29,815 nucleotides of DNA. Origin: a virus (lineage: Duplodnaviria > Heunggongvirae > Uroviricota > Caudoviricetes). The stretch's first letter is position 1. Each line of letters begins with the position of its first letter. Made by a program: the position numbers and the translations under genes. The stretch is from the IMG/VR virus record IMGVR_UViG_3300031088_000793, one strand, 5' to 3'. The notes beneath the pieces are model-generated. The model saw nothing but the letters and a program-made list of their open reading frames with translations, was not told the origin of the DNA and made no database searches. Below are positions 2,164 to 28,583 of the stretch, one piece after another.

Positions 2164-2172
2164 AGTGGTTCG

Positions 2173-2339: not shown

Positions 2340-2424
2340 CGCGCTCAGAGCGCAGAATCAGCACTCTGGAGATGACCCAGAAAGTCGAATCCGAGGGATC
2401 CGAGTCCGACCTCTAGGAGGTGGA

Positions 2425-2952: not shown

Positions 2953-2978
2953 AGGGACCCCTTCTGTCTATGATGGAT

Positions 2979-3022
2979 ACTGTTCTCCCCCATGCTACCG
3001 AAGTGTCATGGGGGAGAACAGT
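2979..3022 (-). terminator. intergenic hairpin with cUUCGg apex
   Basis: ACTGTTCTCCCCCATG / CATGGGGGAGAACAGT perfect 16-bp stem; the minus-strand loop contains cTTCGg. Confidence 0.7.
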
Positions 3023-3025
3023 GGG

Positions 3026-3547: not shown

Positions 3548-3572
3548 AATGAACCCCTTCAAATGGGGGCCA

Positions 3573-3611
3573 CTGTGGCTCCCTTCATCGATCTATCGAA
3601 GGGAGCCACAG
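3573..3611 (-). terminator. intergenic hairpin
   Basis: CTGTGGCTCCCTTC / GAAGGGAGCCACAG perfect 14-bp stem, 7 nt after the stop at 3619. Confidence 0.7.
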
Positions 3612-3618
3612 TTCCGAC

Positions 3619-7205: not shown

Positions 7206-7211
7206 CCGGCG

Positions 7212-7220
7212 ATGCTATCA
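7212..7220 (-). promoter_or_regulatory. extended -10 promoter (TGA-TAGCAT), leaderless
   Basis: TGn-TANNNT with a 6-nt spacer to the ATG at 7205; no RBS. Confidence 0.6.
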
Positions 7221-7246
7221 TGCTGAGCTCAAGCTGGCAACGGCGA

Positions 7247-7281
7247 AGGGCGCCCGCTGACGATCAGTCAGCGAGCGCCCT
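7247..7281 (-). terminator. hairpin after glf
   Basis: AGGGCGCCCGCTGAC / GTCAGCGAGCGCCCT, 15-bp stem with one non-canonical pair. Confidence 0.6.
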
Positions 7282-7296
7282 CAGTGTCGCCGGAGC

Positions 7297-8478
7297 TCAG
7301 AGGTGAGCGGGGTAGCGAGGCACGCTGTTGAGGTGAGCCTGGAGCTTCCGCTCGTAGAGGTGGATGGCCGCATTGACTGCCTGGTGCATGTCGTAGTAGA
7401 GGAAACCAGCAAGGCGGCCTCCGAAGAAGATCCCCTTCTCCTCCTCAGCGCGAGCTCGCTCCTTGTAGGCAGCTGCGAGCTCACTGCTCGAATCGCTGTT
7501 GATCGGGTAGTAGACCTCGTCGTCCTCTCCGGCGAAGCGCGAGTACTCCCGGGTGATCAGCGTCTTGCCGGCGACCTTGTTCTCAGCTGACTGGGGGTCG
7601 TAGTGCTGGTGCTCCAGGATCCGAGTGAAGGGCACATCCGCGTCGTTGTAGTTCATCACTGCGGTGCCCTGGAAGTCATCCACATCCACGACCTCATCCA
7701 CGAGGTCTACGGTGCGCCAGGGAAGCCTGCCGAGCTCGTAGCCGAAGTACTCGTCGAGGGGTCCAGTGTAGACCGTGGGAACTCCGCTGAAGGCCTCTCG
7801 CTGTGCGAAGTAGTCCTGGCCGTAGCGGATCTCGATGTTGGGGTGCTTCGCCATGGACTCAAACATGGCTGTGTAGCCCTTCGAGGGCTGACCCTGGTAG
7901 CGGTCGTTGAAGTAGCGAGCATCGAAGCTGTAGCGCACGGGGAGCCGAGTGATGATCCCGGCGTCGAGCTCCCTGGGATCGGTCTGCCACTGCTTGGCGG
8001 TGTAGCCCTTGACGAACTTCTCGTAGAGCCTTCGGCCGATGAGGCTGATGGCCTTCTCCTCCAGGTTGCTCGCAGACTCGCTGTCGATCTCTGCGGCCTC
8101 CGCGGCGATGAGCTCCCTCGCCTCGTCGGGAGTGAAGTAGCGGCCGTAGACCTGAGCGATGAGCCCGAGGTTCATGGGGAAAGAGTAGACCTGACCCTCG
8201 CTGTTGGCGAAGACCCGGTGCTCGTAGGGTGTGAACTCGGTGAAACGGTTGAGATACTTCCAGACCCGCTCGTTGGGGGTGTGGAAGAGGTGGGATCCGA
8301 AGACATGCTTGGTGATCCCCGTGGCCTCGTCGAGCTCGTCGTAGCAGTTTCCACCGATGTGGTCCCGGCGCTCGAGGATCAGCACCTTTCGGCCCTGGCG
8401 GGCAGCGTGCTCGGCCACCGTGAGCCCGAAGATTCCGGCGCCTACGATGAGGAGGTCTGGCTGGTCAGTTGCTGTCAT
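7297..8478 (-). CDS. glf: UDP-galactopyranose mutase (FAD-dependent, EC 5.4.99.9)
   Basis: LIVGAGIFG FAD-binding motif, HIGGNCY, GSHLFHT, KQWQTDP, RLPVR, RYFND, YYP and GRLA..Y.DMHQ are all Glf hallmarks. Start set at MTATDQPD (8478). Confidence 0.95.
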   Translation of the reverse strand: MTATDQPDLLIVGAGIFGLTVAEHAARQGRKVLILERRDHIGGNCYDELDEATGITKHVFGSHLFHTPNERVWKYLNRFTEFTPYEHRVFANSEGQVYSFPMNLGLIAQVYGRYFTPDEARELIAAEAAEIDSESASNLEEKAISLIGRRLYEKFVKGYTAKQWQTDPRELDAGIITRLPVRYSFDARYFNDRYQGQPSKGYTAMFESMAKHPNIEIRYGQDYFAQREAFSGVPTVYTGPLDEYFGYELGRLPWRTVDLVDEVVDVDDFQGTAVMNYNDADVPFTRILEHQHYDPQSAENKVAGKTLITREYSRFAGEDDEVYYPINSDSSSELAAAYKERARAEEEKGIFFGGRLAGFLYYDMHQAVNAAIHLYERKLQAHLNSVPRYPAHL

Positions 8479-8595: not shown

Positions 8596-11500
8596 TCAGA
8601 TATCTCCTGCTAATTTGGCCTGGTAAATCCGGTTCTCAAAGGAGGGGTTGTTCGGTCCGTTCTCTATGAGACCATCGATGGTATACTGCTCATTTCTTCC
8701 ATACCGTTGATCTAGGATGGCTCTACTGGTTTCATTGTAGAGAGGAGTCCAAATCGCAGGATGGACGCCGTACTTGAGATATGAGGATCCGTTCTTACTG
8801 ACACTGCGTATGGAGGGAACAATGCCAAGTATGTCAAATCCAAGGTACTTTTTGGAGGCAGCACTCACCATGCTCTCTATCCCCTTCTTTGCTGCTCGGT
8901 TGATCAGCTGAAGCGAGTAATTAGCCGCCTTTGAGCCCAACTCACGAGTCAATACTTCGGCGCCCCTACCCTTCAGGATCTTCGTCGCTCCCACAGCTAC
9001 CTTTGCGGCCATAGAAGCTGCCTTGATCGGCCCCAATCCAGGAACAAGGAACGAACCCACAGTGCTAACTGTTTTCACATTCTTGTAGAGAGCAGAGCAG
9101 TTGTCTACAGATCCAGGCTGGATGGCGTTTGCCAAATCAGAGGCAAGGGGGACGGGAAGGAGCCCATCCACAGCAGCCGCTGCGGTGGTCAGAGTATCCT
9201 TCATGGACCAAAGCCCAAGAGGATCCGTGAAGCTCAGCGGATTCCCGCTGCCGTAGGAGTAGGGCTCACCCGTGATGAGCAACGCGGGATCTACGCTGAG
9301 GAAACTCGCCGACTTGGGATCGTACCAGCGGGCTCTGAGGTTGTATAGACCCGTGTCCGGATCGAGATATTCGCCCGCAAAGCCAAATCGTGTCTGAGCA
9401 GCTCCTGTGACGCCTGGGGCGGTTGTCTGTGTGAACTTAGAGCCGTACTCATCGTAGCTACGATTCCATAGTGCTGATCCATCCTCGGCTGTGGCGAGCA
9501 CAACGCTCCCTCGCTCATCTCCGTAGAGATAGGTCTTCTCTCCTGTGGACTTATCGATCTGTAGGAAGGGAGTTGAGTCAGCACCGTAGATGTAGTCGAA
9601 GTCTGAGTCCTCGATGAGCTCAGGCGCTGATCCCGAAACAGTGTCCCAGCTGAAGTGCTCAGTGGGATCGCCACTCACTGAGCGGCTGGAAAGAAGACCC
9701 GCCGCATCGTAGCCGTAGCTCACCGTCTTAGTCGGCGAAAGCTCTACAGATTTGAGTGTGTTTGATTTGCTCCAGCTGTAACTAGCTGTCCCGGTGGATG
9801 AACTAAGTCCAGTGCGGTTTCCCCTGCCATCATAGCTGTAGCTCTGAGTGACTCCATCGACAGTTGCCTGAGACAGCCTGCTCGAAGAGCCATCGTAGCT
9901 GAAGCTGTTCGCGCCGATGCTCTGAAGGTTATTCAGTAGATCGTAGCCGTGAGATTGAGCCACATTGCTGAGCTCATCTTTTGAAGACCGTATAGTGCCA
10001 AAGTCACTGTACTGGTAAGACTTATCCTGAGTCACAGTCCCACCGAAGCTGGCGACAGCCTTGCTGATCCTGCTATCTGCATCGAAGTCCAGTGACCTGC
10101 CGTAGAGCTCCCCAGAGCCGTTCGAGACCATGATCTTCTTGGCCCTGTTCAGCGCATCGAACTCAGTGGTCTCAGTGGTGCCGTTGCCGTAGCTCACTCC
10201 GGTACGATTGTAGCGGTCGTCGTAGCTGTAGTCCGCTAGAGTATCCGCACCGAGCTTGACTTTCTGGATATCTCCTAGGCCATCGTAGCTGTAATCTACG
10301 GTGGTGCCGGATGGATAATCAATCGAAGTGACCTCTCCGTAGCCGTTATAGCCGTAGCTGACCTTGTCCTGAGGCGACCCTCGGGAAGTCAGATCACCTG
10401 AGGGGCTATAGCTGTACTCAGTGGTGAGACCTTCGGGAGTAGTCGATTCGAGGAGCTGATCTTTGAGATTGTAGCTGTTCTCGTAGACCTGACCGCTGCC
10501 GTAGTCAGTCGAGATCAGATTGCTGCTCGAATCGTAGCTGTAGGCTACCTCACTCTGATCGGCTCTGATCTCCTTAGTAGCCCTATTGAGTCCATCGTAG
10601 CCGTAGGCAGTGAGCTCTCCCTCTCGATCCGTGACGGACTTGAGGTTGCCCTCTGAGTCATAGCTCCTGAGCTCAGTAGTGCCGTCTGCGTAGGTCGTCC
10701 TCGTGAGGTTCCCGCTGTCATCGTAGCTGTAGGCCGTCTTGCGAAGGCTTTTCTCATCCATCGACTTAAGCTTACCAGCTGGACTATAGCTGTAGTTTGT
10801 CCAGATTCCAGAAGGTGTGACCTTCTGAGTGATGTTGCCGAGCTTGTCGTAGACTAAGCGAGTCACTCCTCCAGAGGGATCGGTGATCTTCTCGAGTCTA
10901 CCGTCTAAGCCGTAGCCGTAGAGCGTCCGATTGCCTGCAGCATCCACATCGGCCGAGAGTAGACCGTCTGTGCTGTACTCCTTCAGCGTAGACTTGCCAT
11001 TGGGAAGGGTTACCTTCTTGAGCAACCCCGTGCCGTTGTACTCATAGGAAGTCTTTGAGTCCTTGGGGTTAGTGGTTGAGATGAGCCGCTGGTTAGCGTC
11101 ATACTCGTAGCTTGTAGTGCCGTGGGAAGTGGTCACGGTGAGAGGGTTGTCCATGCTGTCATAGCTGTACTGAATCTTCGTTCCATCTTTGGCCACAGAT
11201 TCAGTTAGACGACCCGCGCCGTCGTAGGAAAACTCCTCGGTAGAGCCGTTCTCATAGCGTATTCCACTGATGAGTTCTGGATTGTTCCTCTGGTAGCTAA
11301 ACTCAGTCTCGTTACCGAGGGGATCCGTGATCTTCACTGGGTTGCGAGCGCTATCGTAGCTGTAGCTTGTGGTTTTGCCACGGGTATCTGTAGTCGACTG
11401 AAGTAGCTCAGAGCTGCCGTAGCTGTAGCTTGAGCTCAGGCCGCTTTTCTGGCCATTGGGGTCCGTGCGGCTGGTGAGTACTCCCTCGCTGTTGTGTTCA

Positions 11501-13983
11501 AGGCTTGTGACCTTGCCATCGTAGTCCGTACTCTTGACCAGGATTCCGTCAGTGTCGTACTCGCTGGTAGAGATGTTTCCTGCGGGATTGAAGGTTCGAG
11601 TTAGCAGATTCTGATCGTTGTACTCAAATCTGTAGATCGATCTCCCAGGAGTGGCAAGATAGGTCAGGTTACCTCTGCTGTCGTGGCGATAGCTGATCGA
11701 AGCTCCACTGGGAGTGGTCTCCGAGGTGAGCTCTCCATCCGAAGAGTAGCTGTAGCGGTAGATCCTTTCATCAGCCGTGTCCTTGGCGAAGACACGCTGA
11801 GCGAGTCTCCCCGAGCTATCGTAGCTCTCAACGGTTTTGCTACCATCGGGGAGCACGATCTGAGTCACAGAATTGTAGAGATCGTTGCCGTAGCTAAAGC
11901 TCGTCAGACCGCCTCGAGGATCCTTCTGGGAGCTCACTCGTCCGTCTGAGCCATAGGTTGTTTCGTAGACGCCGCCGTTGGGATGGGTAATGGTCCTGAT
12001 GCGGTTGTCCGGGTAGTAGCTGTAGCTCTTCTTCGCGGCAATCCTACTGTCCGCCACTTCAGTGAGATTGCCATCCGTGTAGCTGTAGCCGACTGTGTGA
12101 GAACCGTCGGTGATAGAGCCTATAAGGTCGCCTGCCCAGCTGATGGTGATCGTGCTGGAACCGTTGCTCACTGTCGAAAGCTTGCCAGCAGAGTAGCCGA
12201 GAGTAGCTTCGTTGCCGATACGATCCACGAGCTTTGTAAGCCTACCGGTGCCATCAAAGATGAACTGCTCCTGGTCCCGGGTCCTCGTGAAGGTGTAGCT
12301 ACCTGAAGCGTCTTCAGACAGCGTGGCCCTAAAGCCATTAGGCGCGGTGAAAGTTCGCTGACCATCTTCGCTGGCGGAGAAGCTCACAGTGGAACCATTT
12401 TCCTGATTCACGGTGAGCCGGGTAGAATCGCTCAGACTGGAAGCATTGCCGCTGATTGCCATGCCGTAGCTAAAGGTGGTGCCGTGGCCGAACGGGCCGC
12501 TCTTGGTGTTTCGAAGGCTAGAGTAGGAGCGACCAAAGTTCAGGTCCATAGTGCCCTCTGCCTGAAGATCGGAAGAGTTCTCGAAGAGCTCACCGTTGAG
12601 ACCGTTGATCGGATCCCCGTGGCACTGTTGCTGACAATCGGCTGTTGAGGGATTGGAACCATTCTGGAAGCGGCTGGTTCTGAAGAAATCTGCGGGAGAA
12701 GCTGGGGGTGCATCTTCTGCATCCGCGCTGTCACTGGATGCCATAACCCCTTGGAGCTGAGAGGCATACTCGACCGTCTGATCACGCTTTGCAATGATCC
12801 CCTTGACCCGTGTGACATCGGGACTAGTTAGGCAGCTGATAACGGGCTGGGGAGGTCCGTGGTCTGGCGACTTATCACTACAGACAATTTTGCCTGTATC
12901 AACATCGGAAAGATAAAGCGACTGAATCTCAGAGATCCAGACATTCCTGCTGGTCTTAAAGTTGGCAGTTATGTACTGAGTGTTATTGGGCTGCGGGGTT
13001 TTGATCGTTTCGCCGATTGTGATGGTCCACTTGCGGGGAGGTATGGTGACCACCTCGCTGACGGCCTGAATGTCCTCAAGTTGATCCGGAGTTGTAGCGT
13101 TGCTCTCGCGCTTTGCTATATAGATCTGGTATCTGAGGGTCTCTGTCTCGCCGATGTTTCTAATCAGCCTACTTTCGCTCAATGAGCCCCACCCATTGCC
13201 CTGGCCAGCGATGGGCATGTACTCCATCGCACTGGTGTTCAGATTGTATAGGTAAACCCCATAGTAGGGGTAGAAGTCTGGAATGACAAATGTGCTCACA
13301 TTGAGTGGCTGGTTTGTTTCATAGCCAATCACCGCGACATCTTCAGAGTATGTCCTGATGTGATCAGGATAATGGCTAGTGGTTATTTCCCACTTACCCC
13401 TTTCGATGGTGATCTCATTGCTCTCTGCGATTATTTCCGGGATCTGATCAACGGGAATAGCTGAAGCGCCGTAGCCCACTCCAGACCGGGCTACCACTAC
13501 TTTGAAATTCTTGGATGACTCCTTGGTAAAGCGCGGTATCTTCCAGATATGTTGAACTCCTCCCCCGATGTAGTAGGTCTTTTGAGCGGTGACATCTACA
13601 AAGTAAAAGTAGTAGTCAGCGCTTCTACCCTGAGCGATGTCTGCGGGGAGGTTTCCCGGATCCACGGTAATCGTAGGGGTATAATCATCCGTGTAGAAAA
13701 TGGAAGCGCTTGAGCTAATCGAGAATGAGTACTGTGACTGTTGTGCACTTCTGGCCTGGCTGGGAGCCGAATCCGTCACAGCTTCAGATTCTACGCTCTC
13801 AACGGGTTCTGCCACTTCTGTGGGCGCGGCTTCAGGAGTAGGAACCACCGACGCTGAAGGCTCACTACTCGGTGCAGCACTGGCCGATGTGGGCGTGGCG
13901 ACTACGAAGCCAGCCAAAAGAGAAGCTGCTGCAACCATACCGACTGATCGCAGCAGCTTCGAAGATAGAGTCTGAATTTTCAA
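8596..13983 (-). CDS. secreted Rhs/YD-repeat protein (1795 aa)
   Basis: TTG start with GGGGAG RBS; Sec signal peptide (ASA-A); DUF6531-like DPINGLNGELF...FGRSYSS; many Y-x-Y-D-x-x-G repeats; core end YNLRARWYDP...PYSYGSGNPLSFTDPLG; about 205-aa C-terminal tip. Confidence 0.95.
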   Translation of the reverse strand: MKIQTLSSKLLRSVGMVAAASLLAGFVVATPTSASAAPSSEPSASVVPTPEAAPTEVAEPVESVESEAVTDSAPSQARSAQQSQYSFSISSSASIFYTDDYTPTITVDPGNLPADIAQGRSADYYFYFVDVTAQKTYYIGGGVQHIWKIPRFTKESSKNFKVVVARSGVGYGASAIPVDQIPEIIAESNEITIERGKWEITTSHYPDHIRTYSEDVAVIGYETNQPLNVSTFVIPDFYPYYGVYLYNLNTSAMEYMPIAGQGNGWGSLSESRLIRNIGETETLRYQIYIAKRESNATTPDQLEDIQAVSEVVTIPPRKWTITIGETIKTPQPNNTQYITANFKTSRNVWISEIQSLYLSDVDTGKIVCSDKSPDHGPPQPVISCLTSPDVTRVKGIIAKRDQTVEYASQLQGVMASSDSADAEDAPPASPADFFRTSRFQNGSNPSTADCQQQCHGDPINGLNGELFENSSDLQAEGTMDLNFGRSYSSLRNTKSGPFGHGTTFSYGMAISGNASSLSDSTRLTVNQENGSTVSFSASEDGQRTFTAPNGFRATLSEDASGSYTFTRTRDQEQFIFDGTGRLTKLVDRIGNEATLGYSAGKLSTVSNGSSTITISWAGDLIGSITDGSHTVGYSYTDGNLTEVADSRIAAKKSYSYYPDNRIRTITHPNGGVYETTYGSDGRVSSQKDPRGGLTSFSYGNDLYNSVTQIVLPDGSKTVESYDSSGRLAQRVFAKDTADERIYRYSYSSDGELTSETTPSGASISYRHDSRGNLTYLATPGRSIYRFEYNDQNLLTRTFNPAGNISTSEYDTDGILVKSTDYDGKVTSLEHNSEGVLTSRTDPNGQKSGLSSSYSYGSSELLQSTTDTRGKTTSYSYDSARNPVKITDPLGNETEFSYQRNNPELISGIRYENGSTEEFSYDGAGRLTESVAKDGTKIQYSYDSMDNPLTVTTSHGTTSYEYDANQRLISTTNPKDSKTSYEYNGTGLLKKVTLPNGKSTLKEYSTDGLLSADVDAAGNRTLYGYGLDGRLEKITDPSGGVTRLVYDKLGNITQKVTPSGIWTNYSYSPAGKLKSMDEKSLRKTAYSYDDSGNLTRTTYADGTTELRSYDSEGNLKSVTDREGELTAYGYDGLNRATKEIRADQSEVAYSYDSSSNLISTDYGSGQVYENSYNLKDQLLESTTPEGLTTEYSYSPSGDLTSRGSPQDKVSYGYNGYGEVTSIDYPSGTTVDYSYDGLGDIQKVKLGADTLADYSYDDRYNRTGVSYGNGTTETTEFDALNRAKKIMVSNGSGELYGRSLDFDADSRISKAVASFGGTVTQDKSYQYSDFGTIRSSKDELSNVAQSHGYDLLNNLQSIGANSFSYDGSSSRLSQATVDGVTQSYSYDGRGNRTGLSSSTGTASYSWSKSNTLKSVELSPTKTVSYGYDAAGLLSSRSVSGDPTEHFSWDTVSGSAPELIEDSDFDYIYGADSTPFLQIDKSTGEKTYLYGDERGSVVLATAEDGSALWNRSYDEYGSKFTQTTAPGVTGAAQTRFGFAGEYLDPDTGLYNLRARWYDPKSASFLSVDPALLITGEPYSYGSGNPLSFTDPLGLWSMKDTLTTAAAAVDGLLPVPLASDLANAIQPGSVDNCSALYKNVKTVSTVGSFLVPGLGPIKAASMAAKVAVGATKILKGRGAEVLTRELGSKAANYSLQLINRAAKKGIESMVSAASKKYLGFDILGIVPSIRSVSKNGSSYLKYGVHPAIWTPLYNETSRAILDQRYGRNEQYTIDGLIENGPNNPSFENRIYQAKLAGDI

Positions 13984-17540: not shown

Positions 17541-20015
17541 CTAGTCCCTGGGGACCACCTGACGGCGATCCAGAGGCGGGAAGAAGGTCTCTGCAGGACC
17601 CCGAGTGAACTTGCCGGGGTCACCGGAGCTCAGCGCACCCTCGGCCTGAGTGATCCTCCTGAAGAAGTCCGAGGGAAGGATCTCGAAGCCCCAGACCGTC
17701 TCGTAGATTCCTCGGAGCTCGCTGAGGGTGAAGCCACCAGCGGGCAGGAAGTCGAAGACGATGGGGGAGTACTCGAGCTTGGCACGGATTCGCTCCAGAG
17801 CATCCCGGAGGAGCACAGCGTGGTCGAAGGCAAGCTCCAGCTCTCCAAAGAGAGCCTCATCCACGGGGACGAAGCGAGCCTTGGCAGCATCGTCACCTGC
17901 GAGCACTGCTGGAGCCTCGGGGAGGAGCGCAGCGTAGAGCGTCGAGATGATGTAGCCCCGGCGATCCCTGCCCGGGTAGCCGTAGGTCCGGACCTGCTCG
18001 ATGTAGCCACCCTCTGAGAGGTTGACTCCGGTCTCTTCCTCGAGCTCTCGGAGCGCAGCACTGTCGATGGACTCTCCTGTGTCCACGAAGCCACCGGGGA
18101 GCGCCCACTTGCCGAGCTCGGGGTGATTACCCCGCTCGATGAGTAGAACCTGAAGCTTCCCGTCGAGGATGGTGAAGATGCTGAGATCCACCGTGGCTCC
18201 GACCGAGGGCCAGCGAGACTGGTCGTAGTGCTTGAGGAACTCTTCCTCGGTGAGTGCCGCCGTCCTATAGCTCTGCACAGCAGCGCTGAGCTCCTCACTT
18301 CGCTCCGCGGGGAGACCTTCCACGCTCCCCTCGTAGCTCTTCCCAAGGAGAAGCTCCTGAGCGAGCCTCTGCAGCTCAGAGCTGACAGCGCTTCGGAAGC
18401 CCACTGTCAGGGCATTCTTCATGACCTCGCCACTGATGAGCTTGCCTAGATCTGTGACCAGGGGAGGGGTTGGGTTTCTCCCGACGACATCCTCGATGAT
18501 GCTCTTGAGCTCATCGATGTCATCCTCGCCGAGGGGAATCGCTCGCTCACCGCGCTCTTCGAGGAGGAGCTCATAGCGCTCTGCGGGCGTCAGCGAAGCG
18601 AGCTTCTCATCCCTCGTGGGCTCGGGGTCCAGGGGATAGCTCTCAGCGAGCCTCCTAAGCTGAGCCTGATGGGCGTTGCCTTCCCGGCGGAGCTCCTCGT
18701 CGCTGGTGTGGGGAGCAAAGTTCGGCCAGGGCCGGTCGAGGAGGAGCACTGAGATCAGGTTGGCCACATCGTCGGCGGCCTCGATGGTCATCCACCAGTC
18801 AGGGCCCAGAGCTCGGGACTTTCGGATCAGGGGATCGGCTTCGGCCACGAGGTCCTGGAGGAGGATCTCGGAGATCTCAGCGTAGATGATTCCCTCTGCG
18901 ATGAGCGCCAGGGTAGCGATCTCCCGCTCGTCGGCGGGCTCACCGTCGTAGTCGTCGAGACCTCGAAGCTCATCTCCGAGGATCTGGTGGACATGGCCCG
19001 CGTGGAGGCCTGAGTGACCGTGGTCTCCGTGAACTTCCTCGACGGTGAAGTCCTCGATGGCCTCTGACTCGTCCTCTGCGGAGATCTCAGCGACTCCCCA
19101 CTCCCCCTCGTCGGATGTATCCGTGGGCTCATCCTCGGGGCTTAGATCGTCAGCTACGGTCCAGAGCTCCGGGTGCGCCTCCAGCTCAGCGTGGGTAGCG
19201 ATGACCTCGGGGTCGTTGACGACGAGCTCCTCAACATCCGTGAGCACTCGAGGTGCGTAGTCCTCGGGAAACTCCTCCTCGAGCTCTACGCTGAGGTCGC
19301 GCTCAGCGCTGTGGACCCGGCCCTCGATGAGCTCTCCGAGCTTCTGGACGAAGCTCTCCCGCTCGGCCTCGGTGATCGGGTAGTCGTCCTCTGCGGGCTC
19401 ACCGAGGAGCTCGCTCAGAGCCGAAGGGCCGAGGCTGTCGAGGTAGAAGTTGGTGGCAGCTTCCACCACTGCCGGATCTGACCAGCTGTAGCTCCGAGCG
19501 TCCTGGGCGAAGTCGGGGACGCTGCTGCCCACGAGCTCTGCGAGCTCATCGAGCTCTACCGAGGCGCCGATCTTATCCTCGATGGCCGACTGGAAGGACT
19601 CGAGCTCTTCCCGGCAGAGAGGCTGGGGATCCTCGCCATCGAGGTCACCGATTGCCATCTGCTCTTCGAGGGTCTCCTTGAGGCCGTAGATCGCAGCAGC
19701 CTCGGTGAGCTCAAAGTCTTCGATGTCGGGGTCCGCATCCTCATCCCGGGCTCCGAGGAGAAGGTCCCGGAGGATTTCGTCGAGCTTCAAGTAGACAGTG
19801 AAGGAGGCCCAGGCGTCCTTGGAGCCCCAGCCTGAGTACTCAAGTTCCTCGCTGTGATTCCGAACGAGGTCCAGAACTGGCTCCGCGAGCTCCAGGATAT
19901 CCCGGTAGAGCTCAGGGACTACTTCGGTTCCGAGGATGAGCTCCGAGAGCTGTCGGAGCTCTACTTCTTCTTGCTCAGAGAGCACGAGTGCTCCCTGCTG
20001 TTCTCCGTCTGTCAT
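17541..20015 (-). CDS. fusion: ~620-aa acidic helical region + NrtR-like Nudix (ADP-ribose pyrophosphatase) + eroded winged-HTH
   Basis: ATG at 20015 with AAGGA RBS. C-terminal TVDLSIF, VLLIER, WALPGGFV, Nudix box GESIDSAALRELEEETG, PGRD, LAFDH and FTLSELRGIYE match NrtR. The N-terminal part is very Glu/Asp-rich. Confidence 0.85.
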   Translation of the reverse strand: MTDGEQQGALVLSEQEEVELRQLSELILGTEVVPELYRDILELAEPVLDLVRNHSEELEYSGWGSKDAWASFTVYLKLDEILRDLLLGARDEDADPDIEDFELTEAAAIYGLKETLEEQMAIGDLDGEDPQPLCREELESFQSAIEDKIGASVELDELAELVGSSVPDFAQDARSYSWSDPAVVEAATNFYLDSLGPSALSELLGEPAEDDYPITEAERESFVQKLGELIEGRVHSAERDLSVELEEEFPEDYAPRVLTDVEELVVNDPEVIATHAELEAHPELWTVADDLSPEDEPTDTSDEGEWGVAEISAEDESEAIEDFTVEEVHGDHGHSGLHAGHVHQILGDELRGLDDYDGEPADEREIATLALIAEGIIYAEISEILLQDLVAEADPLIRKSRALGPDWWMTIEAADDVANLISVLLLDRPWPNFAPHTSDEELRREGNAHQAQLRRLAESYPLDPEPTRDEKLASLTPAERYELLLEERGERAIPLGEDDIDELKSIIEDVVGRNPTPPLVTDLGKLISGEVMKNALTVGFRSAVSSELQRLAQELLLGKSYEGSVEGLPAERSEELSAAVQSYRTAALTEEEFLKHYDQSRWPSVGATVDLSIFTILDGKLQVLLIERGNHPELGKWALPGGFVDTGESIDSAALRELEEETGVNLSEGGYIEQVRTYGYPGRDRRGYIISTLYAALLPEAPAVLAGDDAAKARFVPVDEALFGELELAFDHAVLLRDALERIRAKLEYSPIVFDFLPAGGFTLSELRGIYETVWGFEILPSDFFRRITQAEGALSSGDPGKFTRGPAETFFPPLDRRQVVPRD

Positions 20016-22757: not shown

Positions 22758-23048
22758 CTACGGGAGGATGGTCTCGGGCTCACCCTGGATACGATCTGCC
22801 GTGGCCTGCTGGGCCTCGGTGAGATCCTGGGCTCGAGCGCCGCTCGTGAGCGCCCACCAGAGCGTCCCATCCATGGGACAGTCGCCACAGGTCCGGGGCG
22901 AGATGATGCCGAAGTGACCCATCCGTGGAGGATAGTCCCAGCCAGAGTCGAAGGCCTCGCTGGGAAGGAGCACCTCGTCCTTGCCGCAGATCTCGCAGAT
23001 GTGGCGGAGGGCCCTCTCCCCGGAGGTTCGGTCGGGTGCGATGCTCAC
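22758..23048 (-). CDS. zinc-ribbon-like protein (HICxxCG...GWDYPP...CxxC...WW)
   Basis: CEIC and CGDC pairs around GWDYPPRMG. GTG start at 23048 with GAGGA RBS, overlapping the upstream TAG by 1 nt. Confidence 0.75.
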   Translation of the reverse strand: MSIAPDRTSGERALRHICEICGKDEVLLPSEAFDSGWDYPPRMGHFGIISPRTCGDCPMDGTLWWALTSGARAQDLTEAQQATADRIQGEPETILP

Positions 23049-23188
23049 TAGCCAGCCATCCTCGACGCGTAGATCGAGACACCGGCGAGCACATCCGCGG
23101 ACTTCTCCGTGGTGGTGGGATCGTACTGAGCCTTCCGGGCGAGCCTGTCGAGCTCGCGCCATTCAGCTGCTGTCAGCCTTTCAGCCAT
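23048..23188 (-). CDS. 46-aa microprotein MAERLTAAEWRELDRLARKAQYDPTTTEKSADVLAGVSIYASRMAG (absent from the ORF track)
   Basis: Strong GAGGAG RBS before the ATG at 23188; the TAG overlaps the next GTG; fills the gap after pncB. Confidence 0.65.
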   Translation of the reverse strand: MAERLTAAEWRELDRLARKAQYDPTTTEKSADVLAGVSIYASRMAG

Positions 23189-23228: not shown

Positions 23229-24605
23229 TCAGGCGCTGTAGCCCTGAGCCTCAAGGAAGGTATCGCCAGCGACCACCGAGAGCGCCTCAGCGGGAAGCAT
23301 CTCGATCTGACGCTGAAGCGTCTCCCGGCTGCGCTCGAGACCGGAGCGGAAGCTGAGGCCCTTATCGCCCTGGTAGAGCACTCGCTGCGGGTCGGCCATC
23401 CGGGACTGAGCGAACTCCTCGATGAGCTCAGGCTCACCTGCTGCCCGGTCGAAGAGGGTCTCAGCAGTGAGCTTGCCCTCCTGGTCGAAGAAGCGACGGA
23501 CGGTCTTCCTGCTTCCCAGGGACTTCTTGCCAGCCGCACGCTTGGCCACGGGGACCATGGTGCCATCGGCAGCCTCGCGCTCGACGAGCTTGTAGACCAT
23601 GCCGCAGGTCGGGTGACCCGAGCCGGTGGCCACTCGCGTGCCCGCTCCAGCACCGTCCACGGGAGTGCCGCGCTCGACCATGTTGCTGAGGCTGTACTCG
23701 TCGATGTCACTGGAGAGGATGATCCGGGTCGAGGTGGCACCCAGGGAGTCCAGGAGCTGGCGGGCCTTCACCGTCTCCTCGTGGAGGTCACCGGAGTCGA
23801 TGCGGATGGCTCCGAGCTCGGTACCTGCCACCTCGACGGCGTTGCGGATGCCCTGCTCGATGTCGTAGGTGTCCACGAGGAGCGTGGTACCAGCGCCGAG
23901 GCTGTTGACCTGCGCCTGGAAGGCATCGCGCTCGTCCTCGAAGGACAGGGTGAAGGCGTGGGCTGCGGTGCCAGTGACGGGGATCTCGTAGCGGTAGGCG
24001 GCCTCGATGTTGGAGGTGGCGGCGAAGCCAGCGATGTAGGCAGCGCGAGCGACGGCCACGGCCGAGCTCTCGTGAGTCCGGCGGGAGCCCATCTCGATGA
24101 GAGGGAACTTGCCAGCAGCTGCCTGCACCATGCGAGAGGCTGCACCGGCGATGGCAGAGTCGTGGTTGTAGATCGAGAGAAGCACGGTCTCGAGGAGCAC
24201 GCACTCGAGGAAGCTTCCCTCGACTCGAAGGATGGGGCTGTAGGGGAAGTAGAGCGAGCCCTCCTCGTAGCCGGTCAGGGTGCCGGTGAAGCGGAAGTCG
24301 GCGAGGCGGTCGATGAGCTCATCGCTGATGGCGGGGTGCTGTGCGAGGTAGTTGAGCTGGTACTCGCCGAAGTGGAAGTTCTCCACGGCATCCAGCGCTC
24401 GGTCGACACCCGCGACGACGCCGTAGCGGCGGCCCGTGGGGAGCTTCCGAGCGAAGAGCTCGAAGGTCGTGCGCTGGTCGGCAGTTCCGGCCTGGAGGGC
24501 GGCGGAGGCCATGGTCATCTCGTAGAAGTCCGTCCTGAAGGCGGAGCTCTGGAGATCCTCGAGCTCGCTAAAGGCGTACTCGGCATTGGGGTCAGATATG
24601 CTCAT
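23229..24605 (-). CDS. pncB: nicotinate phosphoribosyltransferase
   Basis: TDFYEMTM, FELFAR, EMGSRRTH, GTAAHAF (phospho-His motif), LLVDTYD, IRIDSGDL and MVYKLVE; actinobacterial PncB type. Confidence 0.93.
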   Translation of the reverse strand: MSISDPNAEYAFSELEDLQSSAFRTDFYEMTMASAALQAGTADQRTTFELFARKLPTGRRYGVVAGVDRALDAVENFHFGEYQLNYLAQHPAISDELIDRLADFRFTGTLTGYEEGSLYFPYSPILRVEGSFLECVLLETVLLSIYNHDSAIAGAASRMVQAAAGKFPLIEMGSRRTHESSAVAVARAAYIAGFAATSNIEAAYRYEIPVTGTAAHAFTLSFEDERDAFQAQVNSLGAGTTLLVDTYDIEQGIRNAVEVAGTELGAIRIDSGDLHEETVKARQLLDSLGATSTRIILSSDIDEYSLSNMVERGTPVDGAGAGTRVATGSGHPTCGMVYKLVEREAADGTMVPVAKRAAGKKSLGSRKTVRRFFDQEGKLTAETLFDRAAGEPELIEEFAQSRMADPQRVLYQGDKGLSFRSGLERSRETLQRQIEMLPAEALSVVAGDTFLEAQGYSA

Positions 24606-24611
24606 GGTTCC

Positions 24612-24617
24612 ATCCTA
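24612..24617 (-). promoter_or_regulatory. -10 box TAGGAT (leaderless pncB)
   Basis: TANNNT exactly 6 nt before the ATG at 24605; no RBS. Confidence 0.55.
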
Positions 24618-24640
24618 CGCCATAGCTGCGGAAAACACAA

Positions 24641-24679
24641 TCGGGCGGGATCCACCGTTTCCAGTGGATGCCCGCCCGA
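24641..24679 (-). terminator. intergenic hairpin
   Basis: TCGGGCGGGATCCAC / GTGGATGCCCGCCCGA, 15-bp stem with one bulge. Confidence 0.6.
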
Positions 24680-24701
24680 CCTCTAGCTACAGCTGCCTAA
24701 G

Positions 24702-25238
24702 CTACGCAGTAGCAGCCGCAGACGCTCGAGACTTAGCGTTTCTGTACTCATTCACATAGCCTTCGTCCTCATAGGAGCCGTTCATCTCGTCTAGGGCTTC
24801 TAGGGCATCCTCCAGGTTGCCATAGACTCCCTGATCCGAGCCATCGGCATCGGTGAGGTCCCAGGTACCGTTACCTGTGGAGCTAGCGAGGAGTATCTCA
24901 CCCTGGGGTCCGACGAGGTGGGGTCCGTTGTCTCCGTCCTCGAAGTCGCCGACCTTGCGCCAGCCCTCCATGGGCGGCACATTGTCCACGATGATCGCAG
25001 CAGGAGTGTCCTGGAGCCGAGGAACTCCAGGAGTTGCCTCCCTGCTCACACCTGAGAGCCCACTGTTGGCGGAGCTGTCCTCGAGGACCTGCTCAGCGAA
25101 GCGTCGAGCCTCCGTAGCGTCAGAGAACTCGCCGTGGGGAGCGCCATCCCCATCGACTCCCTTGGCTGTGCAGCTCTCCGGGGACTGTGCTGTGCAGATT
25201 CGAGGAGTTCCATCCTCTGAGACATGGTATCTTGCCAT
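24702..25238 (-). CDS. H-C-C-H N-terminal module protein A (178 aa)
   Basis: MARYHVSEDGTPRICTAQSPESC...HG; AAGGAG RBS; acidic C-terminal domain. Confidence 0.85.
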   Translation of the reverse strand: MARYHVSEDGTPRICTAQSPESCTAKGVDGDGAPHGEFSDATEARRFAEQVLEDSSANSGLSGVSREATPGVPRLQDTPAAIIVDNVPPMEGWRKVGDFEDGDNGPHLVGPQGEILLASSTGNGTWDLTDADGSDQGVYGNLEDALEALDEMNGSYEDEGYVNEYRNAKSRASAAATA

Positions 25239-25265
25239 TGTGCTATGCTCCTTAGTTAGCTAGGC

Positions 25266-26708
25266 TCAGTCGCCCGAGACAGGGCCACGCTTGGTCTTGA
25301 AGATGGTCCGGAGGTCCTTGAGGTCAGCCTGCATGGCCTTCTCGTTGTAGTCCGGAGCGTTGGTCTTGGACTGGACATTCTCAATCATCCGGCCACCCAC
25401 AACATCGAGGAGTTCCTTCTTGTTGAGCTGGTAGTTGTCCTTGGCGGTGTTGAAGTTTCGTCCAGGGTTCTTCGGGTCTACGATGACCTTGGCGCTGGTC
25501 CAGTCCTCCCAGGGGTTACCGCTAGTATTCTCCCACTGACCGTCAGAGATCTGACCCTTGAGCTCATCCTCGAGGAGCCACTTCTGAGCCTGAGTGCGCA
25601 CTCGGATAGTGTGGCCCTCGTCAGGAATCCTGTGGCCAAGGCCGTTCTCCTCGAGGGCAGTCTGAGCCTTGACCTCAGCATCCCTCACCTTGGCAACGGT
25701 GTCCTGTGCATCCTTGAGCTCAGCCTTCTGCTCCTCTGAGGCTGTGAAGTAGGTAGCGCCGTTGGGGTTGACACCAGGAATGTTGCCGTAGCCCTTTGGG
25801 GTAGGGCCAATGTAGTAGGCCCGGCCTTCTGCGGCCGCGTTGGCAGAGTTGTAGGCCCTGTGGCGAGCGTGGACATCCTTGAGCCTAGCCTCGACGACCT
25901 TGACCGTGTGCTTATAGCCGTCGTACTCGTCTACTAGCTCATCTTCCTGCTCCAGGGTGATCTGAGGCTTCGGAGCGTCGGGGAGGTTGGTGGCAGAACC
26001 ACTCTGAGCCCGCTTCCAGCCGCCGTAGCCCTCGCGGAGCTTCTCGGCAGTTGCCGAAGTGCTGGCCTTCTTGCCATCAGCTGTGAAGGCCTCGACCGAG
26101 CCATCCTTGTTGACCCGGACGATCTTGCCCTGGCGGTGAACATAGAGCTCTTCCTGTGAAGCCTCGCGCTCCTCTGCGGCGATGAGTGCCATCTCCAGAT
26201 CAGTGGGGTCATCTGCGGGGTTCTCAGTGTCCCACATCTCGAGCTCTCTCCGGAGCTCAGCTGCGGTGTAGTTCTCGAAGCGAGCGGCGGTGTAACCCTT
26301 GGACTTAGCGGCCTGGGCCTCAGCGAGGGCAACCTCTGCATCCTCGTAGATCTTGCTGTCAGTGATGGCGCTACCTCGACCAGCCTTCATCTCTTCGGTC
26401 ATCTCGTCCCTGATAGCCTGAAGCTCACTCTGAGCCTTAGCATCGTCGGGGCTGTCGATGACCTTCTGAGCGGCTGTGGCGAAGCGACCGGCGAATGCTT
26501 CTCCAGCGGAGGCCTTTTCCTCGTCATTCTTGGAGGCTGTGACGAAGGCGCCGAGCTGCTTCTCGAAGCGCTGCTGCGACTCCTGGGTAGCCTCCTCCAG
26601 GGTGCCGTGGAAGCTATCACCTGCCTGAGTCTTCGGGCAGCTGTCGGGGCTGGCAGCGCTGCACTTGCCCGGCATGCCGTTGTCGCTGATGTGGAACTTT
26701 GCGGCCAT
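25266..26708 (-). CDS. H-C-C-H N-terminal module protein B (480 aa)
   Basis: MAAKFHISDNGMPGKCSAASPDSCPKTQAGDSFHG; GGAGG RBS; multi-domain body ending in a GQISDGQWEN...W..W domain. Confidence 0.88.
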   Translation of the reverse strand: MAAKFHISDNGMPGKCSAASPDSCPKTQAGDSFHGTLEEATQESQQRFEKQLGAFVTASKNDEEKASAGEAFAGRFATAAQKVIDSPDDAKAQSELQAIRDEMTEEMKAGRGSAITDSKIYEDAEVALAEAQAAKSKGYTAARFENYTAAELRRELEMWDTENPADDPTDLEMALIAAEEREASQEELYVHRQGKIVRVNKDGSVEAFTADGKKASTSATAEKLREGYGGWKRAQSGSATNLPDAPKPQITLEQEDELVDEYDGYKHTVKVVEARLKDVHARHRAYNSANAAAEGRAYYIGPTPKGYGNIPGVNPNGATYFTASEEQKAELKDAQDTVAKVRDAEVKAQTALEENGLGHRIPDEGHTIRVRTQAQKWLLEDELKGQISDGQWENTSGNPWEDWTSAKVIVDPKNPGRNFNTAKDNYQLNKKELLDVVGGRMIENVQSKTNAPDYNEKAMQADLKDLRTIFKTKRGPVSGD

Positions 26709-26755
26709 GGTGTTTCCTCCAGATCGTGGTTATTCCCAGCTATCTCTAATGCGGA

Positions 26756-26800
26756 AGGGGCAGTGAGCTCGGATCTTCCGATCAGTTGCCCACTGCCCCT
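26756..26800 (-). terminator. intergenic hairpin
   Basis: AGGGGCAGTG / CACTGCCCCT 10-bp stem with an inner TCGGA/TCCGA stem. Confidence 0.55.
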
Positions 26801-26812
26801 AGAGCTTGAAGC

Positions 26813-27634
26813 TTAGCCTCGGCCCTTGCTGTTCCATCCAGGCTGAGACCTGTCAAACTCATCCACGGTCTTCCTAGTGGCAAGCCGCACAGCATCAGCG
26901 CTGAGGTCACCGCTTACCTCGAGTCGAGCCTTTAGACTTCTCTTGAGCTCAGCCCGCTCCTTGACCGAGTAGTTGCCACCGAGCGTCGAGATCTGATCCA
27001 CCGCTTCACGCTCTACTCGCTTCTCAAAGGGTGGAAGCTTAGGCTTAGGATCACCGAGGGGTGCTCCGTTGAGCTTTGACCCACTGGGAGTACTAGCCTT
27101 CGAGGGGGCCGCGGGGGAGGACTCTGAGGAGGGACGAGGAGGATCCATCTCGTAGGTGCCCTTCTCTCCAGCCCTGTAGAACCCGTCGCCGGAACGCATA
27201 TAGGCACCCGCTTCGCTTCCCTCCGCGTCGTAGAGAGGGAAGACCTCCCCATCCTGAAGCTCTAGCTCGCTTCCGAAGGTATCCTGGCTCCAGCTCTTGA
27301 CCTCCTCTGAGGAAACAGCCTTGAGCTCACCGAGGTCGTAGCCGTCTCCCTCGAACTCGACCTTCAGCCTACCGCCCTCTACCCGGTACTCGGAGCTGTC
27401 CATCATGTCCGTGGAGAATGCCCTGCGGTCCTCCACAGGAGAACTGCTCGCGGGGCTAGAGCTCACTGGTACTGCGCCATGGCTCGCTTCAAAGCGCCTC
27501 TCGGACTCAGCACTAGCTTCAGCTAGCGTGCCATGAAAGCCATCGCCGGCCTGAGTCTTGGGGCAGCTCTCAGCGCTGGCAGCGCCACACTGCCCGGGTG
27601 TGCCGTCATCCTTGATGTGGAACTTTGTAGCCAT
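26813..27634 (-). CDS. H-C-C-H N-terminal module protein C (273 aa)
   Basis: MATKFHIKDDGTPGQCGAASAESCPKTQAGDGFHG; GGAGG RBS; Ser/Pro linkers separate two further small domains. Confidence 0.88.
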   Translation of the reverse strand: MATKFHIKDDGTPGQCGAASAESCPKTQAGDGFHGTLAEASAESERRFEASHGAVPVSSSPASSSPVEDRRAFSTDMMDSSEYRVEGGRLKVEFEGDGYDLGELKAVSSEEVKSWSQDTFGSELELQDGEVFPLYDAEGSEAGAYMRSGDGFYRAGEKGTYEMDPPRPSSESSPAAPSKASTPSGSKLNGAPLGDPKPKLPPFEKRVEREAVDQISTLGGNYSVKERAELKRSLKARLEVSGDLSADAVRLATRKTVDEFDRSQPGWNSKGRG

Positions 27635-27803
27635 GGTCTTCCTCCGAAATCGTGGGTTCCTTGGAGAGCTATCTAACGGAGTGCTGGTCGCTAGGAGCCC
27701 GCCTAAGCGATCCGAGCTCAGAGCCGTCGGGATGTGCGAGGGGCAGTGGAAAGTGTCTCACCGGCAGCCCTGGAGGCAGCTAGGCACAACTGCTAACCAA
27801 CGG

Positions 27804-27843
27804 CAGAGGGAGCCGAGTACCCGAAGGTTCCCGGCTCCCTCTG
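27804..27843 (-). terminator. intergenic hairpin with cUUCGg apex
   Basis: CAGAGGGAGCCG / CGGCTCCCTCTG 12-bp perfect stem; the minus-strand apex reads ccTTCGgg. Confidence 0.7.
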
Positions 27844-27849
27844 AGCCCG

Positions 27850-28149
27850 CTATTCGAGCTCTAGATCATCGCTAGTCGAGCGGAAGCGATCCACCGCGTG
27901 GGTGTTGGCCCTGCGGTCACACTCCCCACAGACCATGTCCTTGGAGTGAGGCTCCTCCCGGAGCTCACTCTCGGGGCACTCTTCGGCACAGAGGTCGCAG
28001 TAGGATGCTTCCTCCGACCGATCTTCGTAGTCGCTCCAGCTGTTCTCTTCCTCGGAGATCGGTTCCTGAGCCTCAGTGGACTGAACTCCGTAGAGCCCCT
28101 TGAGTGCTTCGGCTGTCTCTCCATCGAGGAGACCGGTGAGTGCGGTCAT
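27850..28149 (-). CDS. acidic CxxC...CxxC zinc-ribbon-like protein (99 aa)
   Basis: CDLC and CGEC pairs; AAGGA RBS. Confidence 0.75.
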   Translation of the reverse strand: MTALTGLLDGETAEALKGLYGVQSTEAQEPISEEENSWSDYEDRSEEASYCDLCAEECPESELREEPHSKDMVCGECDRRANTHAVDRFRSTSDDLELE

Positions 28150-28227
28150 GGTGTTCGTGTTCCTTCTTTCGACTTGCTACAGTCCAGAGCCCGCTGGCTC
28201 CGGGTCTAGGGGAGGATGAGCGACTGC

Positions 28228-28503
28228 TCAGCCCTTGGCGTGGCCGTCGGCCTCGAGCCACTTGAGCACTTCGCCCATCTCGGGGAGCTTGGTGGCCTCC
28301 TGAGGAAACTCGACGGGATTGGCCTGGGAGATCCGGGTTGCCCGGTACTCACCGTCATCGAGCCGGATGACCTGGAGCACCTGAGTGCCGTTGCCGGCCT
28401 CGAGAGTGTGCTCCGTGGAGAGGAAGATCCTGTAGCCCCTCCCCTCAAGCTGCTCAGTGGCCTCTGCCTGGACGAGTGGGTATTCGGTTGCTGTGAGTGT
28501 CAT
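28228..28503 (-). CDS. hypothetical protein (91 aa)
   Basis: GGAG RBS; same strand as neighbours. Confidence 0.75.
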   Translation of the reverse strand: MTLTATEYPLVQAEATEQLEGRGYRIFLSTEHTLEAGNGTQVLQVIRLDDGEYRATRISQANPVEFPQEATKLPEMGEVLKWLEADGHAKG

Positions 28504-28583
28504 CAGCTTCTACTCCATCTGTCTGTTACTGCTACTTGCGGGTAGGTTTGGCGCCATATCGCCTGTGGTCGGATGCTGGAATC

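Follow-up and report, generated by a model that had tools for sequence, protein, structure and literature searches.

Three adjacent genes with a common N-terminal module

The analysed stretch of DNA (29,815 nt; hereafter the window) contains an array of three adjacent genes, all on the minus strand, and the carrier of this array is a 673-kb uncultivated phage-like element. Gene C (26813-27634) encodes 273 aa, gene B (25266-26708) 480 aa, and gene A (24702-25238) 178 aa. The ORF list and an alignment agreed with the initial annotation, which had reported three consecutive genes of these lengths with a common N-terminal module, here termed the HCCH module. Each gene opens at the first start codon past a stop in the ORF list and is preceded by an RBS (GGAGG or AAGGAG). 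The module is encoded by the first 55 codons (minus strand; 27470-27634 in C, 26544-26708 in B, and 25074-25238 in A). In C it is followed by a Ser/Pro linker, a domain termed domX (residues ~63-166), and a helical C-terminal part (residues ~178-273); in B, by an acidic helical linker and a conserved C-terminal body (residues 180-480). Gene A has a divergent module (A-type), a Ser/Gly/Pro linker, and a domain termed domY (residues ~60-178).

When the first 56 residues were aligned, B and C showed 66% identity, and A showed 42% identity to either; H, G, P, C, A, S, C, H, and G were invariant among the three modules. B and C were also ~78% identical at the DNA level across 143 nt, from 21 nt ahead of the ATG, and their leaders have TTAGA..ATAGCT..CACGAT..GGAGGAA in common, in agreement with the similarity originally noted. 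Past residue ~56, BLASTP revealed no significant cross-similarity among the three proteins (A vs C, E 0.036). Searches of Pfam, NCBIfam, PHROGs, PADLOC, and PDB sequences revealed nothing in A, B, or C that could be recognised as a toxin or enzyme domain. The PDB sequence search with C and A gave nothing significant, and a RemA-like match of gene A residues 11-65 (E 0.14) was rejected as noise. Gene B has about 24 orthologs of 361-480 aa. The AF2 model of its residues 180-480 had a pLDDT of 86; fold searches with this body returned generic coiled-coil matches only and no informative fold, and residues 365-446 matched the uncharacterised phrog_24869 (E 3e-5).

A GC-rich hairpin with 9-bp stems (GGGGCAGTG/CACTGCCCC; 26757-26799, minus strand) lies between C and B, ends 6 nt before the promoter-like motif of B described below, and is likely the terminator of C. 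This hairpin-then-motif layout recurs in many relatives. Gene A starts 27 nt behind gene B, and a hairpin with a T-rich tail past gene A (24642-24678, minus strand; core stem 24644-24656) is the likely terminator of the B-A unit. Another hairpin (27806-27841, minus strand) follows an upstream 99-aa gene and bounds the conserved stretch to the left of the slot that holds the array. Rfam gave no match across the array, and structural genes are absent near it.

The module family

Comparison of their sequences indicates that A, B, and C belong to a previously undescribed family, set by an N-terminal module of ~55-60 residues. The profile scan and catalogue of C-termini proposed in the initial annotation revealed this wider family, with differing C-termini. 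This exhaustive profile search gave 176 cluster representatives at E<=1e-3, about 120 of them true members (clusters at 50% identity). Matches of 679-5187 aa, in which only positions 4-20 matched, repeatedly, were left out of the family; we read them as probable repeat proteins, of the YD/Rhs type or a related one. The module starts at or before residue 17 in every true member, and member proteins range from 58 to 616 aa. The module of gene C matched the family HMM with E 2.8e-32.

Residues H6, C16, A18, and C24 were invariant in 125/125 aligned modules, H34 was conserved in 124/125, and G11 in 123/125. Judged from their conservation, the candidate ligands, with the spacing H-x9-C-x7-C-x9-H, most likely bind a single zinc ion. 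The module has no CxxC, and its ligand candidates are single residues, unlike the two CxxC/CxxH knuckles of a zinc ribbon or treble clef. Behind the module helix lies the stretch G-x-h-x-T-x-S-K, which is moderately conserved. In the AF2 model of the B module (pLDDT 75), the module is one compact small domain with a beta-hairpin (4-7/13-16), a loop, and an amphipathic helix (37-52). The initial annotation could not assign the module to a named domain, and the searches agreed: the module has no family in Pfam, NCBIfam, PHROGs, or PADLOC, its profile found nothing significant among PDB sequences, and Foldseek gave no PDB match. Its top AFDB match was the N-terminal stretch of a 291-aa protein that is probably a family member. 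A VIA-wide fold search with the module reached a best Z of 3.4. The similarities to the bL9 N-domain (Z 3.0-3.4, rmsd 3.5-4.0 A, 49-60 residues aligned) and to the Cauli_VI/RNase H1 hybrid-binding domain (TM 0.73 by query, 55 residues; Atlas) are too weak to count for a domain of this length. The bL9 N-domain/RNase H1 hybrid-binding fold consists of a three-stranded sheet packed on a helix and binds RNA or hybrids.

The C-terminal parts are shuffled mosaics and form 57 similarity groups among 184 members. domX was 57-70% identical between proteins with modules only ~42% identical, and the partners of C's domX carry an A-type module. domX (from C) and domY (from A) co-occur in single proteins of relatives, in either order. 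The original statement that the three proteins share nothing past the module thus holds within the window, but not in relatives, where the C-terminal domains of A and C are found in one protein. A constant metal-binding tag with swapped cargo had also been proposed, and the data support a constant, probably metal-binding module on swapped bodies within a wider family. The sister-strain ortholog of C (P0037) has 438 aa, and its extra stretch has distant similarity to a central part of B (28% across 130 aa; E 2e-4 in a pairwise comparison).

Bodies elsewhere in the family include PARP (P0052), LRV repeats (P0138), Tpt1/KptA, ADP-ribosyltransferase, LPD1, PriCT_1, and a Zeta-toxin kinase (54-member viral cluster); a PBECR2 match in P0013 was weak (E 0.049). 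Effector domains of the polyvalent type occur singly in the wider family. The suggested logic of polymorphic effectors therefore fits some members (those with PARP, ADP-ribosyltransferase, Tpt1/KptA, or Zeta-toxin kinase) but not A, B, or C, which have none of these domains. The suggested likeness to MuF was not upheld, since PF04233 was unmatched in Pfam scans of A, B, C, and 122 members.

A promoter-like motif upstream of module genes

A promoter-like motif precedes gene C (GTTAGATA; 27670-27677, minus strand), 43 nt ahead of the ATG, and gene B (ATTAGAGA; 26743-26750, minus strand), 42 nt ahead of the ATG; gene A has no motif of its own. TTAGA was found at -32 to -79 (mostly -36 to -51) in 29/36 non-identical module genes, and RTTAGAKA sites (with [GA] before TTAGA and [TG]A after it) preceded a module gene in 23 of 28 cases in high-GC loci; because many loci are orthologous, neither set of counts is fully independent. 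Five of the seven motif-less module genes are A-type and lie directly behind another module gene. In locus L003, the sole GTTAGAT in 17 kb precedes a module gene, as do both GTTAGAT sites in 11 kb of locus L007.

A conserved G/A-A 7-8 nt past the motif would fit a transcription start. A sigma-70 consensus scan of 24400-28300 revealed no promoter. The motif ends in A, in contrast to the T at the end of SigA-type -10 boxes. Some loci have a second CTTAGR ~32 nt upstream. In a low-GC IMG/VR phage, the corresponding motif is GATATA, which also precedes 8 non-module genes; the signal is therefore best regarded as a promoter class and not as a private mark of the family. The module may be one half of a portable 5' cassette, of which the other half would be the promoter-like motif ~45 nt before the ATG, followed by the RBS.

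Turnover of the array upstream of pncB

The array occupies a slot between conserved flank genes and pncB that holds 2-4 module genes in relatives. The left flank (27882-28561) is conserved in loci L010, L011, L013, L016, L017, and L018. The sister-strain locus L009 is 96-98% identical to the window and has one more A-type gene (338 aa), which sits in a unit of 1119 nt with a 170-nt leader-plus-module repeat on both sides. This repeat corresponds to the module-coding segment of A with its 27-nt leader, and window positions 25092-25261 match two places in L009. Inside C, L009 carries 560 nt where the window has 65 nt. In L010, a single gene stands in place of C and B. Judged from these alignments, the array is evidently rebuilt when copies of the leader-plus-module repeat cross over unequally.

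Distribution of the cassette

A complete 325-kb IMG/VR phage has 11 scattered module copies, and the 475-kb contig Ga0308157_10000058 has at least 3. Contigs of chromosomal appearance have the cassette between housekeeping genes: pyrD and the genes for a tadA-like deaminase and cation efflux, and, nearby, those for aspartase and RNase H. Actinobacterial chromosomes thus likely also carry the cassette, which suggests that it originated in, or is common to, actinobacterial hosts. A tblastn search of INPHARED cultured phages gave no true match for four different modules and so lent no support to the idea that actinophages have this motif. Two pattern scans of GTDB species genomes gave no match (a result limited to the patterns used); in IMG/VR, the high-GC patterns gave no match and the low-GC pattern matched one contig. 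For the huge IMG/VR phage G001, three Pfam TerL models, HK97 capsid, and portal were unmatched, although hallmarks of huge phages may escape such models; its viral status comes from IMG/VR (terminal repeats, CheckV 100%).

Possible role of the cassette

We propose, with about even confidence, that a portable promoter-plus-handle cassette is placed on co-regulated accessory or host-directed proteins that dock onto one partner. The module would be non-catalytic and would serve as a common handle, joined to each body by a flexible linker, by which the protein set docks onto a single common partner, either protein or nucleic acid. Cassette-to-cassette recombination would set the unit ahead of different bodies and add or remove whole genes, making the slot upstream of pncB a fast-changing array. 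Because A, B, and C have no recognisable enzyme, "host-directed" is an extrapolation from other members.

Alternatively, as the initial annotation suggested, the module may be a capsid-packaging or injection address that sends the body into the phage head. The module may be cleaved there, and the body would enter the next host along with the DNA, like T4 Alt and the T4 internal proteins. Family members have multiplied in huge phage-like genomes, and their genes use one promoter class, as late genes do. The G-x-h-x-T-x-S-K stretch behind the helix could be a protease site, and some members carry domains of the packaged or injected phage effector type (ADP-ribosyltransferases, Zeta-toxin kinase, LPD1; PMC5512222). 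However, the cassette also occurs amid housekeeping genes in chromosomal-looking contigs, the array has no structural genes nearby, and a folded domain of 55 residues (AF2) is unlike the T4 leader of ~10 residues. We therefore consider an address unlikely.

A lower probability still is assigned to the possibility that the module is a self-recognising nucleic-acid-binding domain, whose binding site would be the TTAGA-type motif within the promoter or leader of its own gene. Operator and repressor or activator domain would then be together in each gene, and this would explain why motif and module always move as a unit. The linkage is strict across genomes of 48-61% GC, including chromosomal copies; the module is predicted to fold as a small beta-beta-alpha stabilised by metal and weakly resembles nucleic-acid-binding domains (bL9 N-domain, Cauli_VI/RNase H), and some loci have the second CTTAGR. 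Those structural matches are, however, far below significance, and an ordinary -10 box would account both for where the motif lies and for the purine conserved 7-8 nt past it. Moreover, the low-GC phage keeps the module but has GATATA, also before non-module genes, and operonic A-type genes have no motif. In a similar reading, which we regard as improbable, the module is a zinc-dependent domain that reads the TTAGA-type box as DNA or at the 5' end of its own mRNA, and the bodies would be enrolled in a feedback-controlled regulon common to Actinomycetota and huge phages.

It is equally improbable that this is an ordinary paralog family, in which the module is a stable N-terminal fold inherited by duplication without a common partner and the motif is a local promoter copied along: unequal crossing-over between tandem paralogs does copy leader and 5' end together, and most bodies have no known function, but five invariant or near-invariant residues are kept across ~120 clusters with unrelated bodies, the motif is kept where flanking DNA is unalignable between lineages, and copies are scattered, not just tandem.

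Under the proposed promoter-plus-handle cassette, the findings have a practical use. Huge phages have hundreds of genes of unassigned role, and the handle marks a definable subset of them, 11 in the complete 325-kb phage. Together with its recognisable upstream signal, it offers a way to extract a co-regulated accessory set, and a single bait could be used to seek the common partner. The array shows, between closely related strains, how such a gene set is rebuilt. Because copies are likely present on the chromosomes of actinobacterial hosts, function could be tested in cultivable bacteria, beyond uncultivated phages. The RTTAGAKA motif, the mosaic C-termini, the strain-level turnover of the slot, the likely chromosomal cassettes, and the 11-copy phage are new here.

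Comparison with known systems

Polymorphic toxin systems (Zhang, de Souza, Anantharaman, Iyer, Aravind 2012, PMC3482391) resemble the present family in having a constant N-terminus, recombined C-termini, strain-variable arrays, and some toxin domains of the ADP-ribosyltransferase type. In contrast to these systems, the module is a cytoplasmic-looking HCCH domain of 55 residues with no secretion or trafficking family match in Pfam, NCBIfam, PHROGs, or PADLOC. No immunity gene lies behind A, B, or C, the next genes being module genes or pncB. A, B, and C lack a toxin domain, and the family resides in huge phage-like genomes and, probably, in the chromosomes of actinobacteria.

The capsid-targeting leader of T4 (IPI-III, Alt) has ~10 residues, is unstructured, and is removed by the prohead protease. 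Both this leader and the module recur at the N-terminus of otherwise unrelated large-phage proteins, and in both cases the genes use a single promoter class without a -35 box (a putative one for the module). The module differs in being a folded, predicted metal-binding domain that probably also occurs in cellular chromosomes. Bacillus phage G has a lineage-specific expansion of a zinc ribbon, with ~35 copies and a possible role in DNA binding (Iyer et al. 2021, PMC7824862). Its domain is a classical zinc ribbon with no sequence relation to the module (no INPHARED match); what the two cases have in common is that a single huge phage has many copies of a small zinc domain.

Polyvalent proteins string 2-15 effector domains per polypeptide (Iyer, Burroughs, Anand, de Souza, Aravind 2017, PMC5512222). 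ART, Zeta toxin, LPD1, and a primase C-terminal domain are common to them and to the wider module family, and so is a presumed role in early host takeover; a search of that paper found no N-terminal zinc module of this kind. Pfam scanning of A, B, and C matched no effector domain typical of polyvalent proteins, such as MPTase, ART, PBECR, or LPDs. In contrast to the long domain strings of polyvalent proteins, the present family has one handle with one or two body domains, and the handle is common to many separate genes.

A conserved N-terminal module in genes A, B and C

The window comes from a metagenomic contig of 673 kb (ENA ERZ27247443, k141_645502). Three neighbouring minus-strand genes, C (26813-27634; 273 aa), B (25266-26708; 480 aa) and A (24702-25238; 178 aa), each use the first start codon that follows a stop codon and have a good ribosome-binding site; A starts 27 nt behind B. 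The initial annotation had described a common N-terminal module with unrelated C-termini, and both points were confirmed. The first ~55 residues aligned easily, with 66% identity between B and C and about 42% between A and either of them; past residue ~56, no significant similarity was detected among the three proteins (A vs. C, E 0.036). The DNA-level likeness claimed for B and C was also recovered, at about 78% identity over 143 nt from 21 nt before ATG. No enzyme family match was obtained for A, B or C. Residues 11-65 of A (gene at 24702-25238, minus strand) showed a weak, non-significant sequence match in the PDB to a RemA-like regulatory protein (7bm2, E 0.14).

No model of the module was present in Pfam, NCBIfam, PHROGs or PADLOC, and the PDB contained no sequence relative. 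A profile of 14 modules was searched against 1.84 billion cluster representatives, giving 176 matches at E<=1e-3. Proteins of 679-5187 aa that repeatedly matched profile positions 4-20 only were taken as repeat proteins and left out; about 120 true members (58-616 aa) were left, and in every one the match started no later than residue 17. Across 125 aligned modules, H6, C16, A18 and C24 were invariant, H34 was found in 124 and G11 in 123. The consensus was [KR]-[YF]-H-[IV]-x-x-D-G-x-P-x-x-C-x-A-x-[ST]-x-x-S-C-P ... H-[GF] ... E-E-A ... E-x-x-[FL]-E ... G. These findings indicate that the module represents a genuine family without a name, and a wider set of members with varied C-termini does exist.

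AlphaFold2, run on the module alignment, predicted one small domain (pLDDT 75) with a hairpin (residues 4-7 and 13-16), a short helical turn and a helix (37-52). Residue conservation suggests that the module binds zinc. Its four single candidate ligands (H6, C16, C24, H34), spaced 9, 7 and 9 residues apart, differ from the pattern of a classical zinc ribbon. Fold searches gave no significant match: the best were weak (bL9 N-domain and MbtH-like proteins, Z about 3), and the RNase H hybrid-binding domain, with TM 0.73 over 55 residues, was likewise not significant. Among shape neighbours in the ESM Atlas were clusters of hypothetical proteins labelled Uroviricota and a viral cluster of 54 members whose body is a Zeta toxin. 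The proteins of this cluster have the same architecture as a fusion of the module to a Zeta-toxin/AAA_33 kinase body (E 9e-17) encoded in locus L038 (1501-2538, plus strand) of IMGVR_UViG_3300045988_177154.

Diversity of the bodies

The bodies (the remainder of each protein) of 184 members with body >=40 aa formed 57 similarity groups (38 singletons). The body of C starts with a domain termed domX (residues ~63-166). Proteins with the divergent A-type module contain a domain 57-70% identical to it, and the modules of domX-sharing proteins were only about 42% identical. domX and domY, the body of A, occurred together in either order: module-domY-domX in P0065 and module-domX-domY in P0071. Judged from these comparisons, the bodies are shuffled mosaics; the notion of a constant N-terminal part on swapped cargo was thus upheld both by the 57 groups and by the exchanged domain order.

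Pfam named few bodies in the wider family: PARP (2, including P0052), Tpt1/KptA (1), ADP-ribosyltransferase exoenzyme (1), LRV/HEAT repeats (3, including the LRV fusion P0138), LPD1, PriCT_1 and DUF7448. The body of B (residues 180-480; window 25269-26171, minus strand) gave a confident AF2 model (pLDDT 86). It is made up of a small beta domain, a long, prefoldin-like hairpin in the form of an antiparallel coiled coil carrying a beta insert, and an alpha/beta domain matching phrog_24869, of unknown function. Fold searches with this model returned generic coiled-coil matches only, none of them informative.

The array is a variable slot

A relative (L009) is collinear with the window at 96-98% identity, with two differences. 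Inside C, 560 nt replace 65 nt of the window (27055-27120); the resulting ortholog (P0037) has 438 aa, and its extra part distantly resembles the middle of B. Between B and A lies an additional A-type gene (338 aa) in a 1119-nt unit bounded by a 170-nt leader-plus-module repeat, such that window 25092-25261 matches twice. In L010, a single gene stands in place of C and B, and the junction is again in the leader-plus-module repeat. Other relatives carried B380+A271 (L002/L014), B412+A353 (L018) or B406+A355+374 aa (L017), given as module type and length. In all of these, the slot is bounded by pncB and, on the left, by one and the same flank (window 27882-28561). In about nine further cases, genes of the B and A types were found together on a contig. 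The array is evidently a variable slot. Judging from the junctions, unequal crossing-over at the cassette (promoter-like motif, leader and module-coding 5′ end) would be the simplest mechanism of change.

Just upstream of the array, window 27850-28149 (minus strand) encodes an acidic protein of 99 aa that contains two Cys pairs (C-x2-C ... C-x2-C); together with a 91-aa gene (28228-28503) it forms the conserved left flank in at least 6 relatives. A 134-aa protein with C-x2-C ... C-x2-C pairs and no family match is encoded directly downstream of pncB (22758-23162, minus strand). A 1795-aa Rhs-repeat protein (8596-13983, minus strand; 10 RHS repeats and DUF6531) lies between glf and an AAA_28/NadR-like gene.

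Distribution of the module

The module had no match among cultured phages in INPHARED, and scans of GTDB species genomes, limited to sequence patterns, found none. Contigs with close relatives reached 475 kb and were rich in unknown genes, and one of them had at least 3 scattered copies. In IMG/VR, a complete genome (324,925 bp, 29% GC, terminal repeats, CheckV 100%) had 11 scattered copies (220-444 aa), one with a Zeta-toxin kinase body.

Two sets of module-bearing contigs look chromosomal. In L007 (48% GC), two module genes 3 kb apart (2047-3891, plus strand, 614 aa; 6725-8251, minus strand, 508 aa) have as neighbours pyrD, a cation-efflux gene and a gene for a tadA-like deaminase; the clusters closest to this pyrD are from Actinomycetota. 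L003 (NCBI assembly, 57% GC) has one module gene near RNase H and aspartase genes. GTTAGAT is kept upstream of the module genes in both, and 11 kb of L007 contains just two such sites, each before a module gene. The idea that the module is a capsid-packaging or injection address drew no support from the analysis and is unlikely; it is weakened by these chromosomal-looking copies and by how large the folded domain is.

The array in the window adjoins NAD-salvage genes. A 28%-GC phage-like contig (L006) with a T7 Gp5.9-like gene carries a stand-alone Tpt1/KptA (PTS_2-RNA) gene (18693-19289, plus strand) 8 kb from a module-HEAT gene. The repeated nearness of module genes to NAD-using or NAD-making genes may be due to chance.

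A predicted promoter upstream of module genes

Upstream regions were compared for 36 non-identical module genes, identified by the family HMM in 21 JGI metagenome loci and several assembly loci. TTAGA, flanked by G or A on its 5′ side and by [TG]A on its 3′ side, was found 32-79 nt (mostly 36-51 nt) before ATG in 29 genes. Five of the seven motif-less genes were A-type and directly behind another module gene, as A is behind B. Of the 28 RTTAGAKA sites in high-GC loci, 23 lie before a module gene; the sites before B (26743-26750) and C (27670-27677) are the only two on the coding (minus) strand of the window. In these loci, just one gene without the module clearly follows the motif; it encodes 213 aa and starts 37 nt after the site at L014 7491 (plus strand).

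Between lineages, DNA flanking the motif could not be aligned. The space between the motif and a terminator-like hairpin upstream is often just 6-10 nt, leaving no room for a -35 box, and G/A-A is conserved 7-8 nt downstream. This geometry fits a special class of promoter, predicted to have only a -10 box. SigA boxes have T at the position of the motif's final A, a difference that speaks against the housekeeping sigma factor; a consensus scan of the array region found no sigma-70-type promoter. In the 324,925-bp genome the upstream motif was GATATA, 28-43 nt before ATG in 9 of 11 copies. GATATA also precedes 8 non-module genes there, and the signal is therefore a putative promoter class including the family, not a private mark. 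A nucleic-acid-binding domain that recognises its own gene would account for the tight motif-module linkage; weakened by these low-GC data, it is less probable still than an address.

Proposed role and relation to known systems

The best-supported reading, to which we give about an even chance, is that of a portable promoter-plus-handle cassette. The cassette would enrol varied bodies into one co-regulated set, and the zinc module (the handle) with a flexible linker would dock them onto one shared partner. A family without shared function, the least probable reading, fits poorly with residues invariant across unrelated bodies.

Neither the domain nor the linked motif was found in family libraries or in the literature searched. 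The window contributes a tandem slot with strain-level turnover, a mosaic of body domains, chromosomal-looking copies, and a motif that represents a putative promoter class. The constant N-terminus on exchanged bodies itself follows a known logic, which the module family shares with polymorphic toxins (PMC3482391) and polyvalent proteins (PMC5512222).
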